Assembly: GCF_054482595.1 (NCBI RefSeq)
Contig: NZ_CM137008.1
Strand: one strand, 5' to 3'
DNA: 64,000 bases
Shown one piece after another: positions 1 through 61,848 of this stretch; position 1 is the first letter of the stretch; the number at the start of each line of letters is the position of its first letter. The translations under genes and the position numbers were made by a program. The notes beneath the pieces are model-generated. The model was not told the DNA's origin. It saw only the letters and a list, made by a program, of their open reading frames with translations, and did not search any database.

Positions 1-350
1 AATTTGGCGAGAAATTGTTGCACGCCGGAGGTTTGTTTGGCTTTTAACTGACGTTTGTTCTGGGCGGCGATTTCTGCGGCATCCTGTACCGGTGCTTCTC
101 CCAGCAGCTCGCTCATCGCTTTTGCGGCACGATGCGCTTTACCAGGCCCAAAAACGACCTGCACCTGGTCACTGGTCAAAATGACGCCCTTCACGCCTTC
201 CAGCGTTTTGATATCGGGATCAACCAGTGAACTGTCATGTACACCCAGACGCAGGCGCGTCATACAGTTACCACAACTGGCGATATTTCCCGGTCCGCCG
301 ACACGGGTAAGAATGGTGTTCAGAAGTTCACTGCTGATCTCTTTGACCAT
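1..350 (-). CDS. murP: PTS N-acetylmuramic acid-specific EIIBC component, N-terminal part only (C-terminus lies beyond window start)
   Basis: Minus-strand translation from ATG at 350 gives [35 protein letters not shown] with the PTS EIIB cysteine motif; RBS AAGGA upstream; lies 3 nt downstream of murQ stop as in the murQP operon. Confidence 0.85.
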
Positions 351-353
351 GGG

Positions 354-1250
354 TTATTCCTTGTCTAAAACCTGACGAATAAAGCCGCCGTGTTGATCCA
401 GGCGTTTTTTAGCTTCTGCGGCATCGAGATTTTTCAGTACCATCACAATGGCCGTTTTACAGTTGCGCTCGCAGGCAATTAACGCCGCTTCCGCTTGTTC
501 GGCATTACATCCGGTGGCGTTTTTAACAATATTGACCTGGCGCACATGCAGTTTTTCGTTGGTGGCGACCACATCGACCATCAGGTTGCCGAACACTTTG
601 CCAGATTTAATCATCAGCCCGGTGGAGAGCATATTGAGCACCAGTTTCTGCGCTGTACCTGCTTTCATCCGCGAAGAACCGGTAACCACTTCGGCACCTA
701 CAATCGGTGTAATGGCAAACTCTGCGGTGGTTGAAACGGCGCTCCCCGGATTACAGGAAATTCCCACTGTGCGGCAGCCGAGCTGGCGTGCGTATTCCAG
801 TCCGGCAATTACATACGGCGTGCGACCACTGGCCGCAATGCCAACCACCACATCCTGCGCGGTTAAGCCGATGTTTTTCAGGTCGTTAACACCACCTTCC
901 CGGCTATCTTCAGCGCCTTCCACCGCGTGCTGAATGGCATATTCGCCTCCAGCAATCAAACCAACCACCAAACCCGGTTTCACGCCATAGGTGGGCGGAC
1001 ATTCGCTGGCATCCAGAATCCCCAGACGACCGGATGTTCCCGCACCGAGATAAATCAGACGACCGCCGCCGCTGACCTGGGCGTGGATAACATCGATCGC
1101 CGCGGCGATATCCGGCAGTACGCGCTCAACGGCGAGTGGTACAGTTTTATCTTCATCGTTGATAATCCGGCACATTTCCAGCGTTGATACGCGGTCAATT
1201 TCAGCCGAGGCGGCGTTCGAGCCTTCGGTAATCATCTTTTCAAGTTGCAT
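354..1250 (-). CDS. murQ: N-acetylmuramic acid 6-phosphate etherase (SIS domain)
   Basis: 298-aa ORF; sequence and length match MurQ as recalled; divergent from murR. Confidence 0.93.
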
Positions 1251-2399: not shown

Positions 2400-3191
2400 A
2401 TGGGTAAACTCACGGGCAAGACAGCACTGATTACGGGCGCATTGCAGGGAATTGGCGAAGGAATTGCCAGAACTTTTGCGCGTCATGGCGCAAACCTAAT
2501 CTTGCTGGATATCTCCCCTGAGATCGAAAAGCTGGCGGACGAACTGTGTGGTCGTGGTCATCGCTGTACGGCGGTTGTCGCCGATGTGCGTGACCCGGCG
2601 TCGGTAGCCGCAGCTATCAAACGCGCGAAGGAAAAAGAAGGGCGCATTGATATCCTGGTGAATAACGCAGGCGTTTGTCGTCTGGGCAGTTTCCTCGATA
2701 TGAGCGATGACGATCGCGATTTCCATATTGACATCAATATTAAAGGCGTATGGAACGTCACGAAGGCGGTGCTGCCGGAGATGATTGCCCGCAAAGATGG
2801 TCGCATTGTGATGATGTCTTCGGTCACTGGCGATATGGTGGCCGATCCGGGTGAAACGGCGTACGCCTTAACGAAAGCGGCGATTGTTGGCCTGACAAAA
2901 TCGCTGGCGGTGGAGTATGCGCAGTCTGGTATTCGCGTTAACGCCATATGCCCTGGATACGTTCGCACACCAATGGCGGAAAGCATTGCCCGCCAGTCGA
3001 ACCCGGAAGATCCAGAGTCAGTGCTGACTGAAATGGCAAAAGCAATCCCGCTGCGTCGCCTCGCCGATCCGCTGGAAGTCGGCGAACTGGCGGCCTTCCT
3101 CGCATCGGATGAATCCAGCTATTTAACCGGTACACAGAATGTGATTGATGGCGGCAGCACACTGCCGGAGACGGTTAGCGTCGGTATCTGA
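2400..3191 (+). CDS. ucpA: Short-chain dehydrogenase/reductase (oxidoreductase UcpA)
   Basis: 263 aa from ATG at 2400; TGxxxGIG Rossmann motif (TGALQGIGEGIA) and YxxxK-type SDR fold; position between murR and cysP. Confidence 0.9.
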   Translation: MGKLTGKTALITGALQGIGEGIARTFARHGANLILLDISPEIEKLADELCGRGHRCTAVVADVRDPASVAAAIKRAKEKEGRIDILVNNAGVCRLGSFLDMSDDDRDFHIDINIKGVWNVTKAVLPEMIARKDGRIVMMSSVTGDMVADPGETAYALTKAAIVGLTKSLAVEYAQSGIRVNAICPGYVRTPMAESIARQSNPEDPESVLTEMAKAIPLRRLADPLEVGELAAFLASDESSYLTGTQNVIDGGSTLPETVSVGI

Positions 3192-3204
3192 TTCACCTCT
3201 GTTT

Positions 3205-3240
3205 CCTCCCTGCATGTGTGGGGAGGATTTCGTCTTATTC
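3205..3240 (+). terminator. Putative intrinsic terminator downstream of ucpA
   Basis: Inverted repeat cctccc-N9-ggggagg followed by a T-rich tract. Confidence 0.4.
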
Positions 3241-3348
3241 CCTTTTCAACTTCCAAATCACCAAACGGTATATAAAACCGTTACTCCTTTCACGTCCGTT
3301 ATAAATATGATGGCTATTAGAAAGTCATTAAATTTATAAGGGTGCGCA

Positions 3349-4365
3349 ATGGCCGTTAACTTACTGAAAAAGAACTCACTCGCGCTGGTCGCTTCTCTGC
3401 TGCTGGCGGGCCATGTACAGGCAACGGAACTGCTGAACAGTTCTTATGACGTCTCCCGCGAGCTGTTTGCCGCCCTGAACCCGCCGTTTGAACAGCAATG
3501 GGCCAAAGATAACGGCGGCGACAAACTGACGATAAAACAATCTCATGCCGGGTCATCAAAACAGGCGCTGGCAATTTTGCAGGGCTTAAAAGCCGACGTT
3601 GTCACTTATAACCAGGTGACCGACGTACAAATTCTGCACGATAAAGGCAAGCTTATCCCGGCGGACTGGCAGTCGCGCCTGCCGAATAATAGCTCGCCGT
3701 TCTACTCCACCATGGGCTTCCTGGTGCGTAAGGGCAACCCGAAGAATATCCACGACTGGAACGACCTGGTGCGCTCCGACGTGAAACTGATTTTCCCGAA
3801 CCCGAAAACGTCGGGTAACGCGCGTTATACCTATCTGGCGGCATGGGGCGCAGCGGATAAAGCTGACGGTGGCGACAAAGCCAAAACCGAACAGTTTATG
3901 ACCCAGTTCCTGAAAAACGTTGAAGTGTTCGATACTGGCGGTCGTGGCGCGACCACCACTTTTGCCGAGCGCGGCCTGGGCGATGTGCTGATCAGCTTCG
4001 AGTCGGAAGTGAACAACATCCGCAAACAGTATGAAGCGCAGGGCTTTGAAGTGGTGATTCCGAAAACCAACATTCTGGCGGAATTCCCGGTGGCGTGGGT
4101 CGATAAAAACGTGCAGGCCAACGGTACGGAAAAAGCAGCAAAAGCCTACCTGAACTGGCTCTACAGCCCGCAGGCGCAAACCATCATCACCGACTATTAC
4201 TACCGCGTGAATAACCCGGAAGTCATGGACAAACTGAAAGATAAATTCCCGCAGACCGAGCTGTTCCGCGTGGAAGACAAATTTGGCTCCTGGCCGGAAG
4301 TGATGAAAACCCACTTCACCAGCGGCGGCGAGTTAGACAAGCTGTTAGCGGCGGGGCGTAATTAA
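3349..4365 (+). CDS. cysP: Thiosulfate/sulfate-binding periplasmic protein
   Basis: 338 aa with signal peptide; first gene of cysPUWA(M) cluster. Confidence 0.95.
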
Positions 4366-5198
4366 TGTTTGCAGTTTCTTCAAGACGCGTGCTGCCGGGC
4401 TTTACCTTAAGCCTCGGCACCAGTCTGCTGTTTGTTTGCCTGATTTTGCTGCTGCCGCTTTCCGCGCTGGTGATGCAGCTTTCTGAGATGAGCTGGGCGC
4501 AGTACTGGGAAGTGATCACCAACCCGCAGGTGGTCGCGGCCTACAAAGTGACGCTGCTGTCGGCGTTTGTGGCATCAATTTTTAACGGCGTTTTCGGCCT
4601 GCTGATGGCGTGGATTTTAACCCGTTATCGCTTTCCGGGCCGCACGCTGCTTGATGCGCTGATGGATTTACCCTTTGCGCTGCCAACGGCAGTCGCCGGT
4701 TTAACGCTGGCCTCGCTCTTTTCTGTAAACGGTTTTTACGGTGAATGGCTGGCGAAGTTTGATATCAAAGTCACCTATACATGGCTGGGGATTGCGGTGG
4801 CGATGGCCTTTACTAGCATTCCGTTTGTGGTACGTACCGTGCAGCCGGTGCTGGAAGAGTTAGGCCCGGAATATGAAGAAGCGGCGGAAACGCTTGGTGC
4901 AACGCGCTGGCAGAGTTTCTGCAAAGTGGTGCTGCCGGAACTTTCTCCGGCGCTGGTGGCGGGCGTGGCGTTGTCGTTTACCCGTAGTCTTGGTGAGTTT
5001 GGCGCGGTGATATTTATCGCCGGGAACATCGCCTGGAAGACGGAAGTGACGTCGCTGATGATTTTTGTGCGCTTGCAGGAGTTTGATTACCCGGCGGCGA
5101 GCGCGATTGCTTCGGTGATCCTCGCGGCATCCCTGATACTGCTGTTCTCAATTAACACTCTGCAAAGTCGCTTTGGTCGGCGTGTGGTAGGTCATTAA
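4365..5198 (+). CDS. cysU: Sulfate/thiosulfate ABC transporter permease
   Basis: 277 aa multi-TM permease; start overlaps cysP stop (translational coupling). Confidence 0.95.
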   Translation: MFAVSSRRVLPGFTLSLGTSLLFVCLILLLPLSALVMQLSEMSWAQYWEVITNPQVVAAYKVTLLSAFVASIFNGVFGLLMAWILTRYRFPGRTLLDALMDLPFALPTAVAGLTLASLFSVNGFYGEWLAKFDIKVTYTWLGIAVAMAFTSIPFVVRTVQPVLEELGPEYEEAAETLGATRWQSFCKVVLPELSPALVAGVALSFTRSLGEFGAVIFIAGNIAWKTEVTSLMIFVRLQEFDYPAASAIASVILAASLILLFSINTLQSRFGRRVVGH

Positions 5199-6073
5199 TG
5201 GCGGAAGTTACCCAATTGAAGCGTTATGACGCGCGCCCGATTAACTGGGGCAAATGGTTTCTGATTGGCATCGGGATGCTGGTATCGGCGTTCATCCTGC
5301 TGGTGCCGATGATTTACATCTTCGTGCAGGCATTCAGCAAGGGGCTGATGCCGGTTTTACAGAATCTGGCCGATCCGGACATGCTGCACGCGATTTGGCT
5401 GACGGTGATGATCGCGCTGATTGCCGTACCGGTAAACCTGGTGTTCGGCATTCTGCTGGCCTGGCTGGTGACGCGCTTTAACTTCCCTGGACGCCAGTTA
5501 CTGCTGACGCTACTGGACATTCCGTTTGCCGTATCGCCGGTGGTTGCCGGTCTGGTGTATCTGCTGTTCTACGGCTCTAACGGCCCGCTGGGCGGCTGGC
5601 TGGATGAACATAATCTGCAAATTATGTTCTCCTGGCCGGGAATGGTGCTGGTCACCATCTTTGTGACGTGTCCGTTTGTGGTGCGCGAGCTGGTGCCGGT
5701 GATGTTAAGCCAGGGCAGCCAGGAAGACGAAGCGGCGATTTTGCTTGGCGCGTCTGGCTGGCAGATGTTTCGCCGCGTCACATTGCCGAACATTCGCTGG
5801 GCGCTGCTTTATGGCGTGGTGTTGACCAACGCCCGCGCAATTGGCGAGTTTGGCGCGGTGTCGGTGGTTTCCGGCTCGATTCGCGGCGAAACCCTGTCGC
5901 TGCCGTTACAGATTGAATTGCTGGAGCAGGACTACAACACCGTCGGCTCCTTTACCGCTGCGGCGCTGTTAACGCTGATGGCGATTATCACCCTGTTTTT
6001 AAAAAGTATGTTGCAGTGGCGCCTGGAGAATCAGGAAAAACGCGCACAGCAGGAGGAACATCATGAGCATTGA
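5198..6073 (+). CDS. cysW: Sulfate/thiosulfate ABC transporter permease
   Basis: 291 aa permease; start overlaps cysU stop. Confidence 0.95.
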
Positions 6074-7160
6074 GATTGCCAATATTAAGAAGTCGTTTGG
6101 TCGCACCCAGGTGCTGAACGATATCTCACTGGATATTCCTTCAGGTCAGATGGTCGCGTTGCTGGGGCCGTCCGGTTCCGGGAAAACCACGCTGCTGCGC
6201 ATTATCGCTGGGCTGGAGCATCAAACCAGCGGGCATATTCGCTTCCACGGCACCGACGTGAGCCGCCTGCACGCACGTGATCGTAAAGTCGGTTTCGTGT
6301 TCCAGCATTACGCGCTGTTCCGCCATATGACGGTGTTCGACAATATCGCTTTTGGCCTGACGGTGCTGCCGCGTCGCGAGCGCCCGAATGCCGCAGCCAT
6401 CAAAGCGAAAGTGACAAAATTGCTGGAAATGGTGCAGCTTGCCCATCTGGCGGATCGTTATCCGGCGCAGCTTTCCGGCGGCCAGAAACAGCGTGTGGCG
6501 CTGGCGCGCGCGCTGGCTGTGGAACCGCAAATTCTGCTGCTTGATGAACCGTTTGGCGCGTTGGATGCGCAGGTGCGTAAAGAGCTGCGTCGCTGGCTGC
6601 GTCAACTCCATGAAGAGCTGAAATTCACCAGCGTGTTCGTGACCCATGACCAGGAAGAAGCGACCGAAGTAGCTGATCGTGTAGTGGTGATGAGCCAGGG
6701 CAATATCGAGCAGGCTGATGCGCCGGACCAGGTATGGCGCGAACCAGCGACCCGTTTTGTACTCGAATTTATGGGCGAAGTGAACCGCCTGCAGGGAACC
6801 ATTCGCGGCGGGCAGTTCCATGTTGGCGCACATCGCTGGCCGCTGGGCTACACACCTGCGTATCAGGGGCCGGTGGATCTCTTCCTGCGCCCGTGGGAAG
6901 TGGATATCAGCCGCCGTACCAGTCTCGATTCGCCGCTGCCGGTACAGGTACTGGAAGCCAGCCCGAAAGGTCACTACACCCAATTAGTGGTGCAGCCGCT
7001 GGGGTGGTACAACGAACCGCTGACGGTCGTGATGCATGGCGACGATGCCCCGCAGCGTGGCGAGCGTTTATTCGTTGGTCTGCAACATGCGCGGCTGTAT
7101 AACGGCGACGAGCGTATCGAAACCCGAGATGAGGAACTTGCTCTCGCACAAAGCGCCTGA
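6063..7160 (+). CDS. cysA: Sulfate/thiosulfate ABC transporter ATP-binding protein
   Basis: 365 aa; Walker [13 protein letters not shown] signature LSGGQKQR; overlaps cysW by 11 nt. Confidence 0.95.
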
Positions 7161-7181
7161 TAGGTTGAGTGAATGTTAAAC

Positions 7182-7214
7182 GCCCGGAGGCGCTTCCCGC
7201 GATCCGGGCTTTTT
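7182..7214 (+). terminator. Terminator-like hairpin in cysA-cysM intergenic region
   Basis: gcccgga ... tccgggc stem followed by ttttt. Confidence 0.35.
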
Positions 7215-7237
7215 AATGGCAAGGTTTGTAACCTGTA

Positions 7238-7270
7238 GGCCTGATAAGACGCGCAAGCGTCGCATCAGGC
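7238..7270. repeat. REP (repetitive extragenic palindromic) element
   Basis: ggcctgataagacgcgcaagcgtcgcatcaggc, a typical E. coli REP palindrome; a near-identical copy at 29203..29234. Confidence 0.8.
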
Positions 7271-7293
7271 AACACCACGTATGGACAGAGATC

Positions 7294-8205
7294 GTGAGTA
7301 CATTAGAACAAACAATAGGCAATACGCCTCTGGTGAAGTTGCAGCGAATGGGGCCGAATAACGGCAGTGAAGTGTGGTTAAAACTGGAAGGCAATAACCC
7401 GGCCGGTTCGGTGAAAGATCGTGCGGCGCTTTCGATGATCGTCGAGGCGGAAAAGCGCGGGGAAATTAAACCGGGTGATGTGTTAATCGAAGCCACCAGT
7501 GGTAACACCGGCATTGCGCTGGCAATGATTGCCGCGCTTAAAGGCTATCGCATGAAATTGCTGATGCCCGACAACATGAGCCAGGAACGCCGTGCGGCGA
7601 TGCGTGCTTATGGTGCGGAACTGATTCTTGTCACCAAAGAGCAGGGCATGGAAGGTGCGCGCGATCTGGCGCTGGAGATGGCGAATCGTGGCGAAGGAAA
7701 GCTGCTCGATCAGTTCAATAATCCCGATAACCCTTATGCGCATTACACCACCACCGGGCCGGAAATCTGGCAGCAAACCGGCGGGCGCATCACTCATTTT
7801 GTCTCCAGCATGGGGACGACCGGCACTATCACCGGCGTTTCACGCTTTATGCGCGAACAATCCAAACCGGTAACGATTGTCGGCCTACAGCCGGAAGAGG
7901 GCAGCAGCATTCCCGGCATTCGCCGCTGGCCTGCGGAGTATATGCCGGGGATTTTCAACGCTTCGCTGGTGGATGAGGTGCTGGATATTCATCAGCGCGA
8001 TGCGGAAAACACCATGCGCGAACTGGCGGTGCGGGAAGGAATATTCTGTGGCGTCAGCTCCGGCGGCGCGGTTGCCGGAGCACTGCGGGTGGCAAAAGCT
8101 AACCCTGACGCGGTGGTGGTGGCGATCATCTGCGATCGTGGCGATCGCTACCTTTCTACCGGGGTGTTTGGGGAAGAGCATTTTAGCCAGGGGGCGGGGA
8201 TTTAA
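7294..8205 (+). CDS. cysM: Cysteine synthase B (O-acetylserine sulfhydrylase B)
   Basis: 303 aa from GTG at 7294 (VSTLEQTIGNTPLVKL...), PLP-dependent fold; ORF-track extension across the REP rejected. Confidence 0.92.
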   Translation: MSTLEQTIGNTPLVKLQRMGPNNGSEVWLKLEGNNPAGSVKDRAALSMIVEAEKRGEIKPGDVLIEATSGNTGIALAMIAALKGYRMKLLMPDNMSQERRAAMRAYGAELILVTKEQGMEGARDLALEMANRGEGKLLDQFNNPDNPYAHYTTTGPEIWQQTGGRITHFVSSMGTTGTITGVSRFMREQSKPVTIVGLQPEEGSSIPGIRRWPAEYMPGIFNASLVDEVLDIHQRDAENTMRELAVREGIFCGVSSGGAVAGALRVAKANPDAVVVAIICDRGDRYLSTGVFGEEHFSQGAGI

Positions 8206-8207
8206 GA

Positions 8208-8576
8208 TTATTGCGCAGGCACTGTTTTATCCGTCTGCGCAATTAACGCATGTAAAAAAGGCTGTGCATTCTCATCGCTCTTACCGGGCATCTTCACGAT
8301 ATACGGCTTCCCGGTAATCGATGATGACGAAGCAACCTTATCAATAAACTGCTCGGCAGTGTTAATGCGGTTACGGGTATTGCCGAGCTTCAGACGCAGA
8401 TGAGAAACCGCTTCATCGCAGGTATGTTCATCACCGTTGCGCACAAATATCAAATCCTTTTTCTGTGCTAATCCCTCCAGCATGGCGTTGATGCGGGCTT
8501 CTTCATGGGCAGTTAACTTCGCGTAAGCGGGGAGTGTCATTAGTAGTGTAATGACCAGACAAATGATTTTCTTCAT
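8208..8576 (-). CDS. yfeK: Secreted/lipoprotein-like protein YfeK (DUF5329-type)
   Basis: 122-aa ORF with signal peptide, matches YfeK as recalled; divergent from pdxK; its stop lies 2 nt from the cysM stop. Confidence 0.8.
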
Positions 8577-8601
8577 TGAATTACCTTATCCTTGTTTTGT
8601 G

Positions 8602-8667
<66 letters not shown>

Positions 8668-8680
8668 GAGAAAAAATTAA

Positions 8681-9532
8681 ATGAGTAGTTTGTTGTTGTT
8701 TAACGATAAGAGCAGGGCACTGCAGGCGGATATCGTCGCCGTGCAGTCGCAGGTAGTGTACGGCAGCGTAGGCAACAGCATTGCGGTGCCTGCTATCAAA
8801 CAGAACGGTCTGAATGTCTTTGCCGTGCCGACGGTATTGCTGAGCAATACGCCGCATTATGACACTTTCTACGGTGGTGCGATTCCGGACGAATGGTTTA
8901 GCGGCTATTTGCGTGCGCTTCAGGAGCGTGATGCGCTGCGCCAACTTCGAGCTGTAACCACGGGCTATATGGGAACGGCATCGCAAATCAAAATCCTTGC
9001 CGAGTGGCTGACTGCGCTACGCAAAGACCATCCTGACCTATTGATCATGGTCGATCCGGTGATTGGCGATATTGATAGCGGAATTTATGTCAAACCTGAC
9101 CTTCCCGAGGCGTATCGACAATATTTACTGCCACTAGCGCAGGGAATTACCCCCAATATCTTTGAGCTGGAAATCCTGACCGGTAAAAATTGCCGCGATC
9201 TCGACAGTGCCATTGCTGCCGCAAAAAGTCTGCTTTCAGACACATTAAAATGGGTGGTGATTACCAGCGCCTCCGGTAATGAAGAAAATCAGGAGATGCA
9301 GGTGGTGGTGGTCAGTGCCGACAGCGTGAATGTCATTTCCCATTCACGGGTAAAAACCGACCTTAAAGGGACTGGCGACCTGTTTTGTGCTCAGCTCATC
9401 AGTGGCTTGCTGAAAGGGAAGGCGTTAACCGATGCAGTGCACCGAGCGGGGTTGCGCGTACTGGAAGTGATGCGCTACACCCAGCAGCATGAGAGCGATG
9501 AATTGATTTTGCCGCCGCTGGCGGAAGCATAA
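8681..9532 (+). CDS. pdxK: Pyridoxal/pyridoxine/pyridoxamine kinase
   Basis: 283 aa, ribokinase-like fold; matches PdxK. Confidence 0.93.
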
Positions 9533-15744: not shown

Positions 15745-17769
<2,025 letters not shown>

Positions 17770-17770
17770 G

Positions 17771-17989
17771 ATGGAAAAAGAGCAGCTGATTGAAATAGCC
17801 AATACGATAATGCCGTTTGGCAAATACAAAGGGCGTCGCTTAATCGACCTGCCGGAGGAGTATCTGCTGTGGTTTGCCCGCAAAGATGAGTTTCCGGCAG
17901 GGAAGCTCGGTGAGCTAATGCAAATCACGCTGCTGATTAAAACCGAGGGGCTGACGCAACTGGTCCAGCCCCTGAAGCGTCCGCTTTAA
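17771..17989 (+). CDS. ypeB: Small DUF3820-family protein YpeB
   Basis: 72 aa from ATG at 17771, 1 nt after ligA stop: MEKEQLIEIANTIMPFGKYKGRRLIDLPEEYLLWFARKDEFP... Confidence 0.8.
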   Translation: MEKEQLIEIANTIMPFGKYKGRRLIDLPEEYLLWFARKDEFPAGKLGELMQITLLIKTEGLTQLVQPLKRPL

Positions 17990-22730: not shown

Positions 22731-23123
22731 TTATGCTGATTCGTCAATATCGAGACGGGCGAGGAAATTGCGAATTCCTTCACGTGACAAAAATTGCGCG
22801 ACTTTTTCCTGCTCAATGTCTGTCATATTATCTATCGCGTTGATGATTTGTCGATACGCCGGGGCGCGTGCTCCAGGAGCGTATTCAGCAATTCTCTCTT
22901 CAGCTTCCATCAACATTGGTGTGTTATGGAACGCAGGCGTGTTCTGAATAAACTCGCAAACTTGCGTATCGACCAGAATAAGTCTGGCACGACCGCCTTT
23001 CACGCCGGGAAATTTTTCCGTTTTCCAGCCTTTTTCTCTGATCCAACGGTTAACAGTTTGTTTAGCCACACCGAGGCATTCAGCCAGTTCTTCGGTGGTC
23101 ATTTTATTGCGTAATCTTTTCAT
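22731..23123 (-). CDS. yfeD: DUF1323-family putative DNA-binding protein
   Basis: 130 aa; matches YfeD; paralogous to adjacent yfeC (shared ...QTVNRWIREKGW... / ...QTINKWVRKEGW... motif). Confidence 0.85.
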   Translation of the reverse strand: MKRLRNKMTTEELAECLGVAKQTVNRWIREKGWKTEKFPGVKGGRARLILVDTQVCEFIQNTPAFHNTPMLMEAEERIAEYAPGARAPAYRQIINAIDNMTDIEQEKVAQFLSREGIRNFLARLDIDESA

Positions 23124-23124
23124 A

Positions 23125-23469
23125 TTATTTGCTATCGCGAATCCCTAAGCGTTGTAACAATCCGATAATCCCTTCCCGCAGAAGCAAGGATGTAAACTGT
23201 TTTTGTTCAACTGGCGTCATCTCTTTCGCCAGTGTCACCAGCAATACTTCAAGCGGCGCATCACCAGAAAGGGCAGGCGCTTCTCCCTGACCTTCTGGAC
23301 GTTCAGCATTACGAATATATTCACGAACCTGTTCATTGACGTGAACCAGTCGGGCTTTGCCACCCTGGACGCCTGGTTTTGGTGACGTCGTCCAGCCTTC
23401 CTTGCGTACCCATTTATTAATGGTCTGGCGGCTATAGCCGGTCAGTCTGGCAAGTTCATCTGGCGTCAT
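23125..23469 (-). CDS. yfeC: DUF1323-family putative DNA-binding protein
   Basis: ORF runs to 23484 (119 aa); 114-aa form from second ATG (MTPDELARL...) preferred from recalled length; start uncertain. Confidence 0.8.
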   Translation of the reverse strand: MTPDELARLTGYSRQTINKWVRKEGWTTSPKPGVQGGKARLVHVNEQVREYIRNAERPEGQGEAPALSGDAPLEVLLVTLAKEMTPVEQKQFTSLLLREGIIGLLQRLGIRDSK

Positions 23470-27830: not shown

Positions 27831-27845
27831 GTTTGGCATAGCATG

Positions 27846-27867
27846 AAACATAGCAAAGGCTATGTTT
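27846..27867 (+). promoter_or_regulatory. MntR operator palindrome upstream of mntH
   Basis: aaacatagc-aaag-gctatgttt perfect inverted repeat 13 nt upstream of the mntH start. Confidence 0.65.
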
Positions 27868-27870
27868 TAG

Positions 27871-29118
<1,248 letters not shown>

Positions 29119-33954: not shown

Positions 33955-35040
33955 ATGACATTACTCGCTTCGCTGCGCGACTGGCTTAAGGCGCAACAAC
34001 TGGATGCAGTGCTTCTCTCATCACGGCAGAACAAACAGCCGCATCTGGGGATCTCCACCGGATCTGGTTATGTGGTGATTAGCCGAGAAAGTGCGCACAT
34101 TCTGGTGGATTCGCGATATTACGCGGATGTGGAAGCCCGCACGCAAGGCTACCAGCTGCATTTGCTTGACGCGACGCACACGCTTGCAACCATCGCCAGG
34201 CAAATCATTGCCGATGAGCAGTTGCAAACGCTCGGTTTTGAAGGCCAGCAGGTGAGTTGGGAAACCGCGCACCGCTGGCAGTCTGAACTCAATGCGAAAC
34301 TGGTTAGCGCCACGCCGGATGTGCTGCGGCAAATCAAAACGCCAGAGGAGGTGGAGAAAATCCGCCTTGCCAGTGGGATTGCCGATCGCGGTGCAGAGCA
34401 TATTCGCCGCTTTATTCAGGCGGGGATGAGCGAGCGCGAGATTGCCGCTGAACTGGAGTGGTTTATGCGCCAGCAGGGCGCAGAAAAAACCTCTTTTGAC
34501 ACCATTGTCGCCAGTGGCTGGCGTGGGGCGCTGCCGCACGGCAAAGCCAGCGACAAGATTGTTGCAGCGGGCGAGTTTGTCACTCTCGATTTCGGTGCGC
34601 TGTATCAGGGCTACTGCTCTGATATGACGCGCACCTTGCTGGTGAATGGCGAAGGGGTGAGCGCCGAATCTCATCCGCTGTTTAACGTCTATCAGATTGT
34701 TTTGCAGGCACAGCTCGCAGCAATCTCTGCAATTCGCCCCGGCGTGCGCTGCCAGCAGGTTGACGACGCCGCGCGTCGGGTGATTACCGAGGCAGGATTT
34801 GGCGACTATTTTGGTCACAACACCGGTCATGCTATTGGCATTGAAGTACACGAAGATCCGCGCTTTTCACCGCGGGATACCACGACGCTACAGCCAGGCA
34901 TGTTACTGACCGTGGAGCCGGGGATTTATTTGCCAGGGCAAGGGGGCGTGCGCATCGAGGATGTTGTGCTGGTCACCCCGCAAGGCGCAGAAGTGCTCTA
35001 CGCCATGCCGAAAACAGTGTTGCTCACGGGAGAGGCATAA
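33955..35040 (+). CDS. ypdF: Xaa-Pro aminopeptidase (M24 family)
   Basis: 361 aa; M24 metal-binding His/Glu motifs ([13 protein letters not shown]); matches YpdF. Confidence 0.9.
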
Positions 35041-36077
35041 TGGATTTATCGCTATTAAAAGCGTTGAGCGAGGCAGATGCGATCGCCTCCTCGGAACAGG
35101 AAGTGCGGCAGATCCTGCTGGAAGAAGCGGATCGCCTGCAAAAAGAAGTGCGATTTGATGGTCTGGGATCGGTGCTGATCCGCCTCAATGAATCGACAGG
35201 TCCGAAAGTGATGATCTGTGCGCATATGGACGAAGTTGGATTTATGGTGCGCAGTATCTCCCGCGAAGGGGCGATTGATGTGCTGCCGGTTGGCAATGTA
35301 CGCATGGCTGCCCGCCAGCTGCAGCCGGTGCGCATCACCACCCGTGAAGAGTGCAAAATTCCAGGCCTGCTTGACGGCGACCGGCAGGGGAATGATGTCA
35401 GCGCCATGCGCGTGGATATTGGCGCGCGCTCGTATGACGAAGTGATGCAGGCGGGAATTCGTCCAGGCGATCGCGTCACGTTCGATACCACTTTTCAGGT
35501 TCTCCCTCACCAGCGGGTGATGGGGAAAGCCTTTGATGATCGCCTCGGTTGCTATCTGCTGGTGACGTTACTACGTGAGCTGCACGACGCCGAACTGCCT
35601 GCGGAAGTGTGGCTGGTGGCAAGTTCCAGCGAAGAGGTGGGATTACGCGGCGGGCAAACTGCCACCCGCGCGGTGTCGCCGGACGTCGCCATTGTGCTTG
35701 ATACCGCCTGCTGGGCGAAAAACTTTGATTATGGCGCGGCTAACCATCGCCAGATTGGTAACGGGCCGATGCTGGTGTTAAGCGACAAGTCGCTGATTGC
35801 GCCGCCAAAACTTACCGCCTGGGTCGAAACCGTGGCGGCAGAAATTGGCGTGCCGTTGCAGGCAGATATGTTCAGCAACGGCGGCACGGACGGCGGGGCG
35901 GTGCACTTAACCGGCACCGGCGTGCCCACAGTGGTGATGGGGCCAGCAACCCGCCATGGACATTGCGCCGCATCGATTGCCGATTGCCGCGACATTTTGC
36001 AGATGCAGCAACTTTTATCTGCCCTTATTCAACGTCTTACGCGTGAGACGGTTGTTCAACTGACGGATTTCAGATGA
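35040..36077 (+). CDS. ypdE: M42-family aminopeptidase
   Basis: 345 aa; start overlaps ypdF stop; matches YpdE. Confidence 0.9.
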
Positions 36078-39469: not shown

Positions 39470-40222
39470 TTAAAGATGCATTAACTGGCGAAATTCTTTT
39501 ACTTTGCTGCGGCTGACTGGCACTTCAAAATCCAGATCTTTCAGCCGCAGAATATAGGTGTTATTAAACCACGGTTCGATTTCGCGGATTTTGTTCAGAT
39601 TGACACAAAATGAGCGATGGCAGCGGAAAAAATGCGACGGCGGCAGTTTGCTGCAAAATTCGGTAATGTTCATCGGCATTACGTAGGATTCACGCCGCGT
39701 ATAGACAAAGGTCATTTTCTCGTGCGCTTCGGCGTAATAGATATCGTTAATTGGCGTGACGATTATTCGCTCATCTTTCACCAGATTAATGGTGTCATTC
39801 TCACGCGTTACCGTCGCGGCAGGCGTGCTGCTGGTCTGCTGTTGTTGCCAGGCCGCTTCCAGTTTTTGCAGCATCCCGGTAATGCGTGACTCCTGATACG
39901 GTTTGAGAATGTAGTCAAACGCCTCCAGTTCAAACGCTTCTACCGCATGTTCTTTCCACGCGGTGATGAACACAATAAACGGTTTATGGGCGAACTGGCT
40001 GATGTTTTGCGCCAGCAACACACCATCCAGCGACGGAATATTGATATCCAGAAAAATGGCGTCGACGCGGTTATGCTGCAAAAACTTCAACACGTCCAGA
40101 CCGTCGTCAAAGGTGCCGACAATCTCCATCTGGCTGTGCTCTTTAATTAGCCAGCTCAGTTCCTGTTGTGCCAGGAATTCGTCTTCAACAATGATGACTT
40201 TCACAATATCACTCCGGCTCAA
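39470..40222 (-). CDS. ypdB: LytTR-family two-component response regulator
   Basis: Receiver domain plus LytTR DNA-binding domain; ORF-track start 40222 (250 aa), alternative GTG at 40204 would give the 244-aa form I recall. Confidence 0.88.
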
Positions 40223-55600: not shown

Positions 55601-56210
55601 CGGCTGAGACGGATGCTAATGCCTGATATAAATTTGTAAAAGAGATAATTGTTGCTTTTGGAAATGATTGATGAATTACCTCGTCAGGGGGATAATTTGC
55701 TACTCGAGCAATATTTACTGGTTTTGATGAGGTAAGCGGTCGCATTGAATCGTGAAGGGTGGTGACCAGCGCCGGAAAGGTAATTATCAGTGGTTTGGTT
55801 GCAGCAATGTCATCATTAAGAGGCGGCGAAGCAACTAAATGTGATAACACTATATCGACTTCACCTTCTTCCAGCGCGTCCATTGCTTTTTGATGATCGG
55901 CGTATTCCCGGAGTGTTAATTTGATATTTAACGCTCTTTTTAAAAGATTTAAATAATCAGCATTAATACCACGCACCCGTTGCTGCGAATCGGTATGCAA
56001 CAACGTAGCCGTTTGGGACTTGTGTACTGCAATCACAAGATTTTTTTTGCTCGCTAACCAACGTAATTCCTTGTTGCTCAGACGTAGTGGATCAAGTGTG
56101 ACACGGTTGTTACTACTGATGCCACGATATTCGATGTAATCTTCGTCTGCGAAACTTATGGTCGACCAAAGACCACAACAGAGAAGAAAAATATAGGGTA
56201 AAAACTTCAT
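52617..56210 (-). CDS. evgS: Hybrid sensor histidine kinase EvgS (two periplasmic binding domains, PAS, HK, receiver, HPt)
   Basis: 1197 aa; H-box SHEIRTPISSIMG, receiver ILIADDHPTNRLLL; matches EvgS. Confidence 0.95.
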   Translation of the reverse strand: MKFLPYIFLLCCGLWSTISFADEDYIEYRGISSNNRVTLDPLRLSNKELRWLASKKNLVIAVHKSQTATLLHTDSQQRVRGINADYLNLLKRALNIKLTLREYADHQKAMDALEEGEVDIVLSHLVASPPLNDDIAATKPLIITFPALVTTLHDSMRPLTSSKPVNIARVANYPPDEVIHQSFPKATIISFTNLYQALASVSAGQNDYFIGSNIITSSMISRYFTHSLNVVKYYNSPRQYNFFLTRKESVVLNEVLNRFVDALTNEVRYEVSQNWLDTGNLAFLNKPLELTEHEKQWIKQHPDLKVLENPYSPPYSMTDENGSVRGVMGDILNIITLQTGLNFSPITVSHNIHAGTQLNPGGWDILPGAIYSEDRENNVLFAEAFITTPYVFVMQKAPDSEQTLKKGMKVAIPYYYELHSQLKEMYPEVEWIKVDNASAAFHKVKEGELDALVATQLNSRYMIDHYYPNELYHFLIPGVPNASLSFAFPRGEPELKDIINKALNAIPPSEVLRLTEKWIKMPNVTIDTWDLYSEQFYIVTTLSVLLVGSSLLWGFYLLRSVRRRKVIQGDLENQISFRKALSDSLPNPTYVVNWQGNVISHNSAFEHYFTADYYKNAMLPLENSESPFKDVFSNAHEVTAETKENRTIYTQVFEIDNGIEKRCINHWHTLCNLPASDHAVYICGWQDITETRDLIHALEVERNKAINATVAKSQFLATMSHEIRTPISSIMGFLELLSGSGLSKEQRVEAISLAYATGQSLLGLIGEILDVDKIESGNYQLQPQWVDIPTLVQNTCHSFGAIAASKSIALSCSSTFPEHYLVKIDPQAFKQVLSNLLSNALKFTTEGAVKITTSLVHIDDNHAVIKMTIMDSGSGLSQEEQQQLFKRYSQTSAGRQQTGSGLGLMICKELIKNMQGDLSLESHPGIGTTFTITIPVEIIQQVATVEAKAEQPITLPEKLSILIADDHPTNRLLLKRQLNLLGYDVDEATDGVQALHKVSMQHYDLLITDVNMPNMDGFELTRKLREQNSSLPIWGLTANAQANEREKGLNCGMNLCLFKPLTLDVLKTHLSQLHQVAHIAPQYRHLDIEALKNNTANDLQLMQEILMTFQHETHKDLPAAFHALEAGDNRTFHQCIHRIHGAANILNLQKLINISHQLEITPVSDDSKPEILQLLNSVKEHIAELDQEIAVFCQQND

Positions 56211-56214
56211 GTGG

Positions 56215-56829
56215 TTAGCCGATTTTGTTACGTTGTGCGAATGTGTAAAGATCCATCAGTGATTTACATTCTAATTTTTCCATCAGGCGACTTTTATAAG
56301 TGCTGACAGTTTTGTTGCTGATGAACATTTTTTCAGCAATGTCATTATTATCCTTGCCATCAAGAATATAGCGCATGACACTAATTTCTTGTTTCGATAA
56401 GGAGTCGAGTTTTTGCTGGTCGGACGTTAAACTTCCAACAAACCGGTTGAGAGAGAAGGGGAAATAGCAGTAGCCATTTTTTGCAGCTTCAATAGCCGCA
56501 ATGATATTGTTCATGCCTTCTTTTTTACTCACGAAACCATTAGCGCCAGCATCAGCACAATGTTTCCCGTAAAAATGGTCATTTTTAGCGGAGACGATAA
56601 TAATAATTCCGCTATATTGGCGCTTCCTCAGCGTTTCTAACACCTGGATACCGTTAACTCCGGGGATATCGACATCAATGATGACGATATCAGGCTTAAG
56701 TGTTTCCACCCGCTGAACGGCACTTCCGCCTTCAGTCAACTCTGCTAAGATTTCAATATCGTTTTTGATCAATAAATTACGAATTGCTGCGATAGCAAGA
56801 GGATGGTCATCAATAATTATTGCGTTCAT
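56215..56829 (-). CDS. evgA: Response regulator EvgA (NarL/FixJ family)
   Basis: 204 aa; MNAIIIDDHPLAIAAIRNLL receiver plus LuxR-type HTH. Confidence 0.95.
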   Translation of the reverse strand: MNAIIIDDHPLAIAAIRNLLIKNDIEILAELTEGGSAVQRVETLKPDIVIIDVDIPGVNGIQVLETLRKRQYSGIIIIVSAKNDHFYGKHCADAGANGFVSKKEGMNNIIAAIEAAKNGYCYFPFSLNRFVGSLTSDQQKLDSLSKQEISVMRYILDGKDNNDIAEKMFISNKTVSTYKSRLMEKLECKSLMDLYTFAQRNKIG

Positions 56830-57053
56830 AGATTATTCCCTTTGCAATGAAGCATCTCCCTTCTCCCTGTAGTAATACAGACATAAGGCATCATCTCATT
56901 TTCTCAATAAAAATAAGAAAATTTGAGCTTCCTTTAAGATAATTCGACAAGTATACCATATAAATAGTCGGCATATATGAAATGTCAACAATAAAATCAG
57001 GGATTGTACCGATGATTTATAGTTTCACATTAGCACTATAAGTCTTCTCACTA

Positions 57054-57244: not shown

Positions 57245-58408
57245 GTGGAACAGATTAATTCAAATAAAAAACATTCTAACAGAAGAAAATACTTTTCTTT
57301 ATTGGCGGTAGTTTTATTTATTGCGTTTTCAGGTGCCTATGCCTATTGGTCAATGGAATTAGAAGACATGATTAGTACAGATGACGCCTATGTCACGGGG
57401 AATGCAGATCCAATTTCTGCACAAGTCTCAGGTAGTGTCACTGTCGTTAATCATAAAGATACGAACTACGTTCGACAAGGTGACATTTTAGTTTCACTGG
57501 ATAAAACTGATGCCACTATCGCACTCAATAAAGCTAAAAATAATCTGGCAAATATTGTTCGGCAAACGAATAAACTGTACTTACAGGATAAACAATACAG
57601 TGCCGAAGTCGCTTCAGCACGTATTCAGTATCAACAATCTTTAGAAGATTATAACCGTCGTGTGCCTTTAGCGAAGCAGGGGGTTATTTCAAAAGAAACG
57701 CTGGAGCATACCAAAGATACGTTAATAAGTAGCAAAGCGGCATTGAATGCCGCTATCCAGGCTTATAAAGCGAATAAAGCTTTAGTAATGAACACACCAT
57801 TAAACCGTCAGCCACAAGTCGTGGAAGCGGCGGATGCAACCAAAGAAGCCTGGTTGGCGCTTAAACGTACGGATATTAAGAGTCCGGTTACCGGCTATAT
57901 TGCCCAGAGAAGTGTTCAGGTCGGCGAAACAGTGAGCCCCGGACAATCGTTAATGGCTGTCGTACCGGCACGTCAAATGTGGGTTAATGCCAACTTTAAA
58001 GAAACACAACTCACGGATGTACGGATTGGTCAATCGGTCAATATTATCAGCGATCTTTATGGTGAAAATGTTGTGTTTCATGGTCGGGTGACAGGGATCA
58101 ATATGGGAACCGGCAATGCGTTCTCCTTATTACCTGCACAAAATGCGACAGGGAACTGGATCAAAATCGTTCAGCGTGTACCGGTTGAAGTTTCTCTTGA
58201 TCCAAAAGAACTCATGGAACACCCCTTGCGCATTGGTTTATCGATGACTGCAACTATTGATACGAAGGACGAAGACATTGCTGAGATGCCTGATCTGGCT
58301 TCAACCGTGACCTCCATGCCTGCTTATACCAGTAAGGCTTTAGTTATCGATACCAGTCCGATAGAAAAAGAAATTAGCAACATTATTTCGCATAATGGAC
58401 AACTTTAA
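57245..58408 (+). CDS. emrK: Multidrug efflux membrane fusion protein (EmrA paralogue)
   Basis: 387 aa; N-terminal TM anchor then coiled-coil/HlyD fold; matches EmrK. Confidence 0.93.
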   Translation: MEQINSNKKHSNRRKYFSLLAVVLFIAFSGAYAYWSMELEDMISTDDAYVTGNADPISAQVSGSVTVVNHKDTNYVRQGDILVSLDKTDATIALNKAKNNLANIVRQTNKLYLQDKQYSAEVASARIQYQQSLEDYNRRVPLAKQGVISKETLEHTKDTLISSKAALNAAIQAYKANKALVMNTPLNRQPQVVEAADATKEAWLALKRTDIKSPVTGYIAQRSVQVGETVSPGQSLMAVVPARQMWVNANFKETQLTDVRIGQSVNIISDLYGENVVFHGRVTGINMGTGNAFSLLPAQNATGNWIKIVQRVPVEVSLDPKELMEHPLRIGLSMTATIDTKDEDIAEMPDLASTVTSMPAYTSKALVIDTSPIEKEISNIISHNGQL

Positions 58409-59946
58409 TGGCAATCACTAAATCAACTCCGGCACCATTAACCGGTGGGACGTTATGGTGCGTCACTATTGCATTGTCATTAGCGACGTTTATGCAAATG
58501 TTGGATTCCACTATTTCTAACGTCGCAATACCGACAATATCTGGCTTTCTGGGAGCGTCAACAGACGAAGGCACCTGGGTTATCACCTCGTTTGGCGTAG
58601 CAAATGCCATTGCGATCCCTGTTACCGGCAGGCTGGCACAAAGAATAGGCGAATTAAGGTTATTTTTACTTTCAGTCACTTTTTTTTCGCTGTCTTCCTT
58701 AATGTGTAGTTTATCGACCAATCTTGATGTTCTGATATTTTTTAGAGTCGTTCAGGGGTTAATGGCGGGGCCGTTAATTCCACTGTCACAGAGTTTATTA
58801 TTAAGGAATTATCCACCAGAAAAAAGGACATTTGCTCTGGCATTATGGTCAATGACCGTGATTATCGCTCCGATATGTGGGCCGATATTGGGCGGCTATA
58901 TTTGTGATAACTTTAGCTGGGGTTGGATATTTTTAATCAATGTCCCTATGGGGATTATCGTCCTGACATTATGCTTAACCTTACTTAAAGGAAGAGAAAC
59001 TGAGACTTCACCGGTCAAAATGAATCTACCAGGACTGACCCTGTTAGTGCTCGGTGTTGGTGGCTTGCAAATTATGCTTGATAAAGGGCGCGATCTGGAT
59101 TGGTTCAACTCGAGTACAATAATAATATTAACAGTAGTATCAGTTATTTCTCTGATCTCTTTAGTTATTTGGGAGTCGACCTCAGAGAACCCGATTCTTG
59201 ATCTCAGTTTGTTTAAGTCCCGTAATTTCACCATTGGTATAGTGAGTATCACATGCGCGTATTTATTTTACTCTGGAGCGATCGTCCTTATGCCGCAGTT
59301 ACTCCAGGAAACGATGGGGTATAATGCGATATGGGCCGGACTTGCTTATGCGCCCATCGGCATCATGCCACTATTAATTTCACCTTTGATAGGACGTTAT
59401 GGCAACAAAATAGACATGCGGTTGTTAGTGACATTTAGTTTTTTGATGTATGCGGTTTGCTATTACTGGCGTTCTGTGACATTTATGCCAACGATTGATT
59501 TTACAGGCATCATTTTGCCACAGTTTTTCCAGGGATTCGCCGTTGCCTGTTTCTTTTTACCCTTAACAACGATTTCGTTTTCAGGGTTGCCAGATAATAA
59601 ATTTGCCAATGCCTCGAGTATGAGTAATTTTTTTCGTACCTTGTCAGGATCAGTTGGTACGTCGTTGACAATGACGCTGTGGGGACGACGCGAATCGTTA
59701 CACCATAGTCAGTTGACAGCAACCATCGATCAATTTAACCCCGTGTTTAATTCATCGTCACAAATTATGGATAAATACTATGGTTCGCTTTCAGGAGTTC
59801 TTAATGAAATTAATAATGAAATAACCCAGCAGTCACTTTCTATTTCTGCAAATGAGATTTTCCGTATGGCGGCTATTGCTTTTATCTTACTTACGGTTTT
59901 GGTGTGGTTTGCGAAACCGCCGTTTACAGCGAAAGGCGTTGGGTGA
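58408..59946 (+). CDS. emrY: MFS multidrug efflux pump (EmrB paralogue, 14-TM)
   Basis: 512 aa; start overlaps emrK stop; matches EmrY. Confidence 0.93.
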   Translation: MAITKSTPAPLTGGTLWCVTIALSLATFMQMLDSTISNVAIPTISGFLGASTDEGTWVITSFGVANAIAIPVTGRLAQRIGELRLFLLSVTFFSLSSLMCSLSTNLDVLIFFRVVQGLMAGPLIPLSQSLLLRNYPPEKRTFALALWSMTVIIAPICGPILGGYICDNFSWGWIFLINVPMGIIVLTLCLTLLKGRETETSPVKMNLPGLTLLVLGVGGLQIMLDKGRDLDWFNSSTIIILTVVSVISLISLVIWESTSENPILDLSLFKSRNFTIGIVSITCAYLFYSGAIVLMPQLLQETMGYNAIWAGLAYAPIGIMPLLISPLIGRYGNKIDMRLLVTFSFLMYAVCYYWRSVTFMPTIDFTGIILPQFFQGFAVACFFLPLTTISFSGLPDNKFANASSMSNFFRTLSGSVGTSLTMTLWGRRESLHHSQLTATIDQFNPVFNSSSQIMDKYYGSLSGVLNEINNEITQQSLSISANEIFRMAAIAFILLTVLVWFAKPPFTAKGVG

Positions 59947-61630: not shown

Positions 61631-61848
61631 TTATATTTTCTTCTCCAGGTTGGCGATGCCAGTTGGCATGTTTTTCTTACTTGCCTATATGGTTACTCGT
61701 TGGCGAGAACAGAGGCGGAATTGGGGACAATTGGCCGGGAATTATTGTTATTTTTTATTGTATTGCCGTGTCAGGTGATAGGGCGTTGGATCTCGCCAGT
61801 GACGTCTGTTTCTGCTACAGTGCCCGTTTTACGACAAACGGCTTGGGT

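Follow-up and report, generated by a model that had tools for sequence, protein, structure and literature searches.

Gene content and junctions of the window

The stretch of DNA analysed here, referred to as the window, is a 64,000-nucleotide segment of a non-K-12 Escherichia coli chromosome that spans murP to cscA. Over positions 3000-8000 it was 100% identical to E. coli XH990 (NZ_CP019359.1); comparison over the whole 64 kb gave 5 SNPs within the initial 32 kb, an additional A in the window at 58373, and a single SNP past that position. All complete annotated CDSs carried over from the XH990 RefSeq record (56/56) were intact open reading frames in the window. An Rfam scan of the whole window returned six tRNAs and RtT only, with no match at any junction. 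Junction distances are given as the number of nucleotides from stop to start, with negative values for overlaps and positive values for spacers (Table 1).

Table 1. Coding sequences, gene junctions and associated signals in the window
Feature	Position	Strand	Distance (nt)	Details
murQ/murP junction	350..356	-	+3	absent from the first-pass annotation
cysP CDS	3349..4365	+		operon's first gene, encoding the periplasmic thiosulfate/sulfate-binding protein; XH990 RefSeq; intact ORF, ATG...TAA
cysP/cysU junction	4363..4367	+	-1	TAATG; TAA 4363-4365, ATG 4365-4367, shared A 4365
cysU (cysT) CDS	4365..5198	+		ABC permease subunit; RefSeq annotation, intact ORF
cysU/cysW junction	5196..5200	+	-1	TAATG; TAA 5196-5198, ATG 5198-5200, shared A 5198
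cysW CDS	5198..6073	+		ABC permease subunit; RefSeq annotation, intact ORF
Shine-Dalgarno (SD) for cysA	6051..6056	+		AGGAGG within cysW codons, 6 nt 5' of ATG
cysW/cysA overlap	6063..6073	+	-11	11 nt; cysA ATG 6063-6065, cysW TGA 6071-6073
cysA CDS	6063..7160	+		ABC ATPase subunit; RefSeq annotation, intact ORF
cysA-cysM spacer	7161..7293	+		uncoupled; GC hairpin 7182-7209 then U5; REP-like palindrome 7239-7270
ligA/ypeB junction	17767..17773	+	+1	TGA-G-ATG; TGA end 17769, G 17770, ATG 17771
yfeC/yfeD junction	23121..23127	-	+1	absent from the first-pass annotation
ypdF/ypdE junction	35038..35042	+	-1	TAATG; shared A 35040, GGAGAGG upstream
ypdA/ypdB junction	40202..40222	-	+14	ypdA TGA 40221-40219, 14-nt spacer with GGAG, ypdB GTG 40204-40202
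evgA/evgS junction	56208..56217	-	+4	absent from the first-pass annotation
evgL ORF (MLHCKGNNL)	56826..56855	-	-4	9 codons; TGA overlaps evgA ATG as ATGA (56829-56826)
emrK/emrY junction	58406..58410	+	-1	TAATG; shared A 58408, weak SD

The content and order of cysP-cysU-cysW-cysA-cysM matched the reference: the XH990 RefSeq arrangement was identical, E. coli K-12 MG1655 has the same layout, and the cysPUWAM operon of K-12 and Salmonella comprises the same genes in the same order. From cysP to cysA, nucleotide identity with K-12 was 97.3%, and the interval from ucpA to the cysP promoter region is 146 bp longer in K-12. The K-12 junction distances (-1, -1, -11, and 133) are those of the window; although cysP/cysU reads TGATG in K-12 and TAATG in the window, the -1 spacing is preserved in both. 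The first-pass annotation, made from the sequence alone, had described one shared nucleotide at each of cysP/cysU and cysU/cysW and an 11-nt overlap at cysW/cysA; read directly, with the ORFs intact, all three proved exact. Its view that such overlaps back the operon calls was also sound, since they leave no room for a terminator and a promoter between genes. Between positions 3000 and 8700, a crude consensus scan, which promoters inside upstream genes could escape, found 0 sigma-70-like sites against 3.7 expected, and no convincing internal terminator was found in the same interval. The spacer between cysA and cysM folded at -48.8 kcal/mol (z=-3.0).

Elsewhere in the window, the overlaps reported at ypdF/ypdE and emrK/emrY and the 1-nt gap at ligA/ypeB were likewise exact. 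In XH990, emrK has lost 1 nt at a site 35 nt ahead of the emrK/emrY junction, whereas the allele of the window is intact. For ypeB, the longest-ORF rule would create a false 92-nt overlap; Pfam PF12843 begins at residue 3 of the 72-aa YpeB, a position that speaks for the ATG at 17771 and against the start of the longest ORF, which lies 93 nt further upstream. Thus six of the seven junctions first listed were correct to the nucleotide and one, ypdA/ypdB, was wrong, while five further tight junctions had been missed: murQ/murP, yfeC/yfeD, evgA/evgS, evgL/evgA, and the junction of an 18-aa uORF with mntH at -20. The overlap of evgL (b4781) with evgA is also found at -4 in the K-12 distance table (PMC10666635 supplement).

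Tight junctions were not enriched in the window over the E. coli baseline. Within -8 to +6 nt we counted 8 of the 31 co-directional pairs, as compared to 707 of 2987 (24%) genome-wide (PMC10666635; binomial P=0.46), and 6 of the 31 pairs overlapped (baseline about 15%; P=0.32).

Start codon of ypdB

The overlap first reported for ypdA/ypdB, a TTGA at 40219..40222, was rejected; it needs ypdB to start at the TTG (40222-40220) that comes first in frame in the longest ORF. The RefSeq start is instead the GTG at 40204, 14 nt past the ypdA stop and with GGAG 7 nt on its 5' side, and the same +14 is given for this pair in the K-12 distance table (Huber 2023, PMC10666635 supplement). Position 1 of the Pfam receiver profile (PF00072) aligned with residue 9 of the 250-aa TTG form and with residue 3 of the 244-aa GTG form, and the Klebsiella homologue (PDB 2qv0) has Met where the window has GTG. 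For YpdB (PyrR), a LytTR-type response regulator, a receiver domain that begins within the first few residues supports GTG 40204 and speaks against TTG. The reported overlap was created by the longest-ORF rule. To choose the longest ORF and then cite its NTGA overlap in support of the start is circular, and in this case displaced the start by 18 nt. The general proposition that overlaps back the chosen starts therefore failed at ypdB; the starts of cysU, cysW, and cysA were upheld by a different line of evidence, their conservation in 76-78 species.

Conservation of the cys junctions

The cys junctions were surveyed in 80 Enterobacterales loci (CysW identity 79-100%), with junction counts out of 78. 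The cysP/cysU distance was -1 in 66 loci, 0 in ten loci of the Citrobacter clade, +2 in one, and -4 in one. At cysU/cysW it was -1 in 76, even as the stop alternated between TAA and TGA, and at cysW/cysA it was -11 in 77, with -4 in Shimwellia. More broadly, the median distance for the CysU-to-CysW COG pair was -1 (516 pairs, 1,695 species surveyed; PMC10666635 supplement). Because this geometry is kept across genera, the overlaps are not accidental as features. The AGGAGG columns were near-invariant among 76 species, and the bases of the cysW/cysA overlap were invariant. Synonymous variation was low at the same places: third-codon-position entropy in the last 10 codons of cysW was 0.355, the lowest of 282 windows of the gene (gene mean 0.996), and the last 10 codons of cysU (0.755; 11 of 268 windows as low) and of cysP (0.80; 11 of 329) were also low, as compared to 1.287 (282 of 356) in the control, the last 10 codons of cysA. 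Low synonymous variation at the ends of cysP, cysU, and cysW points to initiation signals lying within the upstream coding sequences. Judging from these alignments, purifying selection acts across Enterobacterales on both the geometry of the cys junctions and their embedded ribosome-binding signals.

The cysA/cysM spacer drifted in length from 63 to 227 nt across loci, and its hairpin and T-run were present in 65 of 71 species. All of these junction distances are already listed for K-12 (Huber et al. 2023, PMC10666635), and the arrangement is an ordinary, textbook one by which the translation of neighbouring genes is usually tied together; beyond annotation quality its importance is small, as it confirms how well-studied E. 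coli loci are organised into operons. The comparative data make a small quantitative addition, namely that the cys junctions are constrained and that the spacer separating cysA from cysM is variable and holds a terminator-like hairpin.

A separate stretch within cysW (5759-5869) gave a low consensus energy (-19.8 kcal/mol) and was rejected as a structure: it is near-invariant with an unfavourable covariance term, and its paired columns were nearly all invariant or carried one-sided changes (G-C to G-U).

Probable translational coupling at the junctions

Distances of -8 to +10 nt are regarded as predictive of termination-reinitiation (PMC10666635). Five of the junctions fall within this range: cysP/cysU, cysU/cysW, ypdF/ypdE, and emrK/emrY (-1 each) and ligA/ypeB (+1). 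The first-pass annotation had called all seven of its junctions translationally coupled; for these five the geometry is indeed canonical for coupled cistrons, but cysW/cysA (-11) and ypdA/ypdB (+14) lie outside the range, and Huber and co-authors set the +14 range aside as gene-specific (PMC10666635). An SD-like motif in the 3' end of the upstream gene was strong for cysA and ypdE, moderate for cysU and cysW, and weak for emrY and ypeB; in the termination-reinitiation class such motifs are common but not obligatory (Huber et al. 2019/2023).

Precedents for this arrangement are close. Coupling was first demonstrated at trpE/trpD (PMC12548453), which has the same -1 spacing as cysP/cysU, cysU/cysW, ypdF/ypdE, and emrK/emrY, and trpE/trpD and trpB/trpA are the classical coupled stop/start overlaps, co-directional within the E. 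coli trp operon and encoding subunits of one complex (PMC12548453); coupling of trpE/trpD was shown genetically, however, whereas for the pairs in the window it is predicted. Among native overlapping E. coli pairs tested, four of five were coupled (PMC6728339). The pairs hyfHI, astDB, ydbH/ynbE, and menDH (Huber et al. 2019, 2023) resemble those of the window in having short overlaps with an SD inside the upstream gene, although the pairs tested by Huber were all at -4 (ATGA) and the junctions here are at -1, +1, and -11. The two studies of native E. coli pairs, one covering five (PMC6728339) and the other three of the same set (PMC10666635), include no pair from the window, and a full-text search of the accessible papers for cysPUWAM together with translational coupling returned none. 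Heteromeric complexes are overrepresented 4.5-fold among short overlaps (PMC6728339, PMC10666635), and the junctions fit the general rule that overlapping cistrons encode subunits of one complex: cysP/U, cysU/W, cysW/A, and emrK/Y are marked as complex subunits in the K-12 table, with emrK/Y at -1 (PMC10666635 supplement). YpdF/YpdE and LigA/YpeB are listed there as proteins that are not complex subunits, so a stoichiometry rationale does not apply to either.

These are normal internal junctions of known polycistronic E. coli operons, namely cysPUWA(M), fryBC-ypdFE-fryA, emrKY, and ligA-ypeB, and we infer that they are probably coupled by termination-reinitiation. In each, the downstream start lies on or 1-2 bases from the upstream stop, and the closing codons of the upstream gene carry the ribosome-binding signal of the downstream one. 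Where the distance is -1 or +1, a ribosome would end the upstream cistron, free its peptide, and stay on the mRNA to restart at the neighbouring ATG, while whatever SD-like contact is present would hold the terminated ribosome near that ATG. Output of the downstream protein would thus be tied to that of the upstream protein, a linkage that would suit subunits of one complex, such as those of the EmrK-EmrY pump or of the CysU-CysW-CysA transporter and CysP, the protein that binds its substrate.

The cysA start at cysW/cysA would be expected to be served partly by de novo initiation and partly by reinitiation after short back-scanning. The strong AGGAGG suggests that de novo initiation accounts for a substantial share of cysA translation, and since coupling in synthetic constructs declines as overlaps grow past -4 (review, PMC12548453), this junction, at -11, may couple poorly. 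A more elaborate possibility, to which we give little credence, is that cysW/cysA is a dedicated stoichiometry device, in which reinitiation plus recruitment by the strong SD would yield about two CysA per CysW while the -1 junctions enforce 1:1. Such a ratio would suit the transporter if, in keeping with the general architecture of ABC importers, it has a CysA dimer seated on a CysU-CysW heterodimer.

Perhaps the most serious alternative to coupling by termination-reinitiation is that the overlaps carry no obligatory coupling, being by-products of compaction (TAATG, TGATG, and NTGA arise easily) at which 30S subunits initiate de novo on each gene's own SD-like element. The bioBF pair, the one uncoupled case among the five tested, shows that this can happen: it overlaps at -4 and yet is fully translated downstream without upstream translation (PMC6728339), by purely de novo initiation. 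A review credits the abundance of such spacings partly to their easy evolution (PMC12548453). Duplexes with the 3' end of 16S rRNA would serve independent initiation at cysA (-10.3 kcal/mol, the strongest in the window), at ypdE (-7.4), and at the G-rich, conserved elements of cysU and cysW (about -6 each). Spacing is also not rigid, as seen at cysP/cysU with its 0-nt and +2 loci and in the paralogous K-12 pump pair emrA/emrB; like emrK/emrY, this pair consists of a membrane-fusion protein gene followed by an MFS pump gene, both encoding subunits of one tripartite pump, but it is separated by a +16 nt spacer, and overlap is thus no requirement of the pump family. Nor does the sequence evidence, conservation included, separate coupling from independent initiation driven by an SD: conserved geometry and SD-like elements are expected with or without coupling. 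The shared A is part of an indispensable ATG, and a lost stop would extend the upstream protein. Against free initiation stand the weak duplexes at emrY (-3.0 kcal/mol), ypeB (-3.7), and evgS (-1.7) and the undetectable SD of yfeD (+0.3), where efficient independent initiation is unlikely, together with the coupling of most tested native pairs and of trpE/trpD at the same -1 spacing. On balance, we consider an absence of obligatory coupling rather unlikely.

Coupling could also operate by RNA unfolding, with the downstream ribosome-binding site paired to upstream coding sequence in a hairpin that opens only when ribosomes translate the upstream gene; this is an established model (PMC12548453). 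Opening energies at cysU (11.0 kcal/mol), cysW (14.9), and cysA (12.7) exceeded the window median of about 9.4, but tight junctions as a group did not differ from the other starts of the window (Mann-Whitney P=0.28). RNAalifold consensus energies for 76 species at the three cys junctions (-5.8, -7.4, and -1.7 kcal/mol) were like those of 62 operon control windows (-6.25 +/- 4.0), and hence no conserved structure, and no conserved sequestering hairpin, is present there. Unfolding is accordingly an improbable basis for coupling at these junctions.

That the tight junctions are annotation artefacts, with starts called too far upstream and the real junctions spaced, was true of ypdA/ypdB (a false -4 for a real +14) and of the longest ORF of ypeB, but is scarcely credible for the others, given that the ATGs of cysU, cysW, and cysA are retained in 76-78 species with homology from residue 1, that in-frame stops lie 2 codons 5' of the cysU ATG and 5 codons 5' of that of emrY, and that the RefSeq and K-12 annotations agree on all six junctions.

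Tight gene junctions

Six of the seven stop/start junctions that the first-pass annotation had listed as translationally coupled were borne out by direct reading of the sequence (see table); the seventh, ypdA/ypdB, was a start-codon artefact, and the list itself was incomplete, lacking five equally tight junctions. Among these five, evgL (b4781)/evgA also stands at -4 in the published K-12 distance table (Huber et al. 2023, PMC10666635), and the 18-codon ORF before mntH, a hypothetical protein in the PGAP annotation of strain XH990, might serve mntH as a leader peptide or uORF.

Junctions and related features in the window. Distances run from upstream stop to downstream start; negative values are overlaps.
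Feature	Position (nt)	Distance (nt)	Detail
cysP/cysU	stop 4363-4365; start 4365-4367	-1	TAATG
cysU/cysW	stop 5196-5198; start 5198-5200	-1	TAATG
cysW/cysA	ATG 6063; TGA 6071-6073	-11	AGGAGG ahead at 6051-6056
ligA/ypeB	17770 (single spacer base)	+1	TGA-G-ATG
ypdF/ypdE	35040 (common A)	-1	TAATG
emrK/emrY	58408 (common A)	-1	TAATG
murQ/murP		+3	missing from earlier list
yfeC/yfeD		+1	missing from earlier list
evgA/evgS		+4	missing from earlier list
evgL/evgA	56826-56855	-4	minus strand; 9-codon ORF MLHCKGNNL; TGA overlaps evgA ATG as ATGA; missing from earlier list
18-codon ORF/mntH	27843-27899		overlaps mntH start (27880) by 20 nt; missing from earlier list
Hairpin	7182-7209		GC-rich, then U5; cysA-cysM spacer
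REP-like palindrome	7239-7270		cysA-cysM spacer, after hairpin and U5

The overlap proposed for ypdA/ypdB (TTGA, 40219..40222) is real only if ypdB starts at the first start-like codon of its longest ORF. Evidence points to GTG 40204 rather than TTG 40222 as the start: GTG 40204 is the RefSeq start and is preceded by GGAG at 7 nt, while no Shine-Dalgarno (SD)-like element was seen before the TTG; the first residue of the Pfam receiver domain is number 3 if translation starts at the GTG and number 9 if it starts at the TTG; a Klebsiella homologue of known crystal structure (2qv0) has Met at the GTG; and the published K-12 distance for this pair, there named pyrS/pyrR, is +14 nt (PMC10666635). 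The longest ypeB ORF likewise begins 93 nt farther upstream, within ligA (17678-17771), and the annotated ATG at 17771, with its +1 spacing, is supported by the 72-aa form, in which Pfam PF12843 starts at the third residue. The argument that the overlaps support the operon calls holds insofar as they leave no intergenic room for a terminator and promoter; as support for the chosen start codons it is circular.

Tight junctions were not enriched in the window. Eight of its 31 co-directional adjacent pairs lay within -8 to +6 nt, as compared with 707 of 2,987 (24%) in E. coli (Huber et al. 2023, PMC10666635), and six overlapped, as compared with about 15% in most prokaryotic groups (Huber et al. 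2019); the binomial tail probabilities were 0.46 and 0.32, respectively. The most frequent distances among 2.66 million prokaryotic gene pairs are -4 and -1 (PMC10666635).

Conservation of the cys operon junctions

With each species represented by one genome, a scan yielded 80 Enterobacterales loci (CysW identity 79-100%), in which all five genes were placed by tblastn. The cysU/cysW distance was -1 in 76 of 78 loci and +2 in one; an apparent +189 and a nonsensical -873 reflected disrupted or truncated loci, and one further locus was unscorable. The cysW/cysA overlap was -11 in 77 of 78 loci (-4 in Shimwellia), and cysP/cysU was -1 in 66, with 10 loci from a Citrobacter-like clade at 0 and one locus each at +2 and -4. 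The stop codon alternated freely between TAA and TGA with the -1 register retained, even within E. coli, where cysP/cysU reads TGATG in K-12 and TAATG in the window. Across these loci, the cys junctions are maintained features, not accidents.

Third-codon-position entropy was calculated for the last ten codons of each gene in a 76-sequence cysP-cysA alignment and ranked among all 10-codon windows. Values were 0.80 for cysP (gene mean 1.07; 11 of 329 windows as low), 0.755 for cysU (1.04; 11 of 268) and 0.355 for cysW (1.00; the lowest of 282), as compared with 1.29 for the control cysA, which lacks a coupled neighbor (1.08; 282 of 356). The conserved bases match G-rich SD-like elements, GCGGGGCG before cysU, GGTAGG before cysW and AGGAGG before cysA, and they extend over the dual-coding cysW/cysA overlap, ATGAGCATTGA. 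The SD duplexes computed for the tight junctions had energies (kcal/mol) ranging from -10.3 (cysA), -7.4 (ypdE) and about -6 (cysU and cysW) to -3.7 (ypeB), -3.0 (emrY), -1.7 (evgS) and +0.3 (yfeD).

A tiling-array study handled cysP-cysU-cysW-cysA-cysM as a single polycistronic operon (PMC3082872). Our crude scan of 3000-8700 placed the ucpA terminator at 3204-3227 and returned no sigma-70-like match, against 3.7 expected from shuffles. The cysA/cysM boundary differs in kind, with a 133-nt spacer (7161-7293) that varied from 63 to 227 nt across loci. A hairpin and T-run were present there in 65 of 71 Enterobacterales species, the stem sequence being clade-dependent, which suggests a conserved attenuator or terminator between the transporter genes and cysM.

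Probable coupling and its alternatives

By precedent, translational coupling is the likeliest reading of these junctions: it was first demonstrated at trpE/trpD, which has the same -1 spacing, and galT/galK is coupled at +3 (PMC12548453). We found no experimental test of it for the window's pairs, either in the two studies of native E. coli pairs (PMC6728339 and PMC10666635) or by full-text search. Conserved geometry and conserved SDs are also expected with independent initiation, and bioBF, one of five native overlapping E. coli pairs tested, was uncoupled (PMC6728339). A review names two coupling models as current (PMC12548453): one in which RNA is unfolded, and one in which the terminating ribosome reinitiates. 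Unfolding found no support at the cys junctions, where consensus folding energies were -5.8, -7.4 and -1.7 kcal/mol, as compared with -6.25 ± 4.0 for 62 control windows. Nor did initiation regions at tight junctions differ in opening energy from the window's remaining starts (P = 0.28). Within the operon, consensus folding was strongest at 5759-5869 in cysW (-19.8 kcal/mol); this was rejected as RNA structure, and the near-invariant nucleotides of that stretch, essentially without compensatory changes, represent sequence conservation only.

Since unfolding is unsupported there, reinitiation is the more plausible of the two at -1 and +1 junctions, above all where the SD is weak. At cysW/cysA, a sizeable de novo initiation component would be expected given its consensus SD; the -11 overlap exceeds the -8 to +10 class, and larger overlaps lower coupling in synthetic constructs (PMC12548453). 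The paralogous emrA/emrB pair has a +16 spacer, in contrast to -1 in emrK/emrY, so overlap is dispensable for that pump family. An extra A at 58373 gives the window an intact 387-aa emrK ORF, whereas XH990, the closest genome, is frameshifted (one A fewer in the A-run, position 26373 of L002, its sequence) 35 nt upstream of the emrK/emrY junction, a natural test case for emrY coupling.

In substance and detail the junctions are already known: the K-12 supplementary table contains every one treated here at identical distances, and the cross-phylum table gives a median of -1 over 516 pairs for the CysU-to-CysW COG pair (PMC10666635). In E. coli, subunits of heteromeric complexes are enriched 4.5-fold among short overlaps, and the K-12 table marks cysP/U, cysU/W, cysW/A and emrK/Y as complex subunits (PMC10666635).

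Strain background

Of 5,426 complete E. coli genomes, 5,425 contained region 3000-8000 by megablast; it was 100% identical to XH990, whose annotation there reads cysP-cysT(U)-cysW-cysA-cysM. The XH990 RefSeq annotation was transferred to the whole window, a segment spanning murP to cscA; all 56 complete CDSs carried over are full ORFs. Besides the extra A in emrK, the window differs from XH990 by five SNPs within the first 32 kb and one past 58373. It is not K-12, given the absence of yfeS, the presence of csc genes and 97.3% identity to K-12 across cysP-cysA. At 8205-8576, yfeS, the neighbor of cysM in K-12, is missing, and yfeK (opposite strand) directly follows cysM. In region 61400-62844, dsdX is cut down to a 72-codon remnant beside cscA and a LacI-family regulator gene (61849-62844), provisionally named cscR as it adjoins cscA; this region is a sucrose-utilization insertion absent from K-12. 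The stretch from the ucpA terminator to the cysP promoter region is 146 bp longer in K-12 MG1655 (303 vs. 157 nt), the additional sequence falling at 3232-3233 of the window. Two convergent 3'-end overlaps were also observed, ypeB/yfeH (4 nt, 17986-17989) and yfeR/flxA-like (10 nt, 19991-20000).
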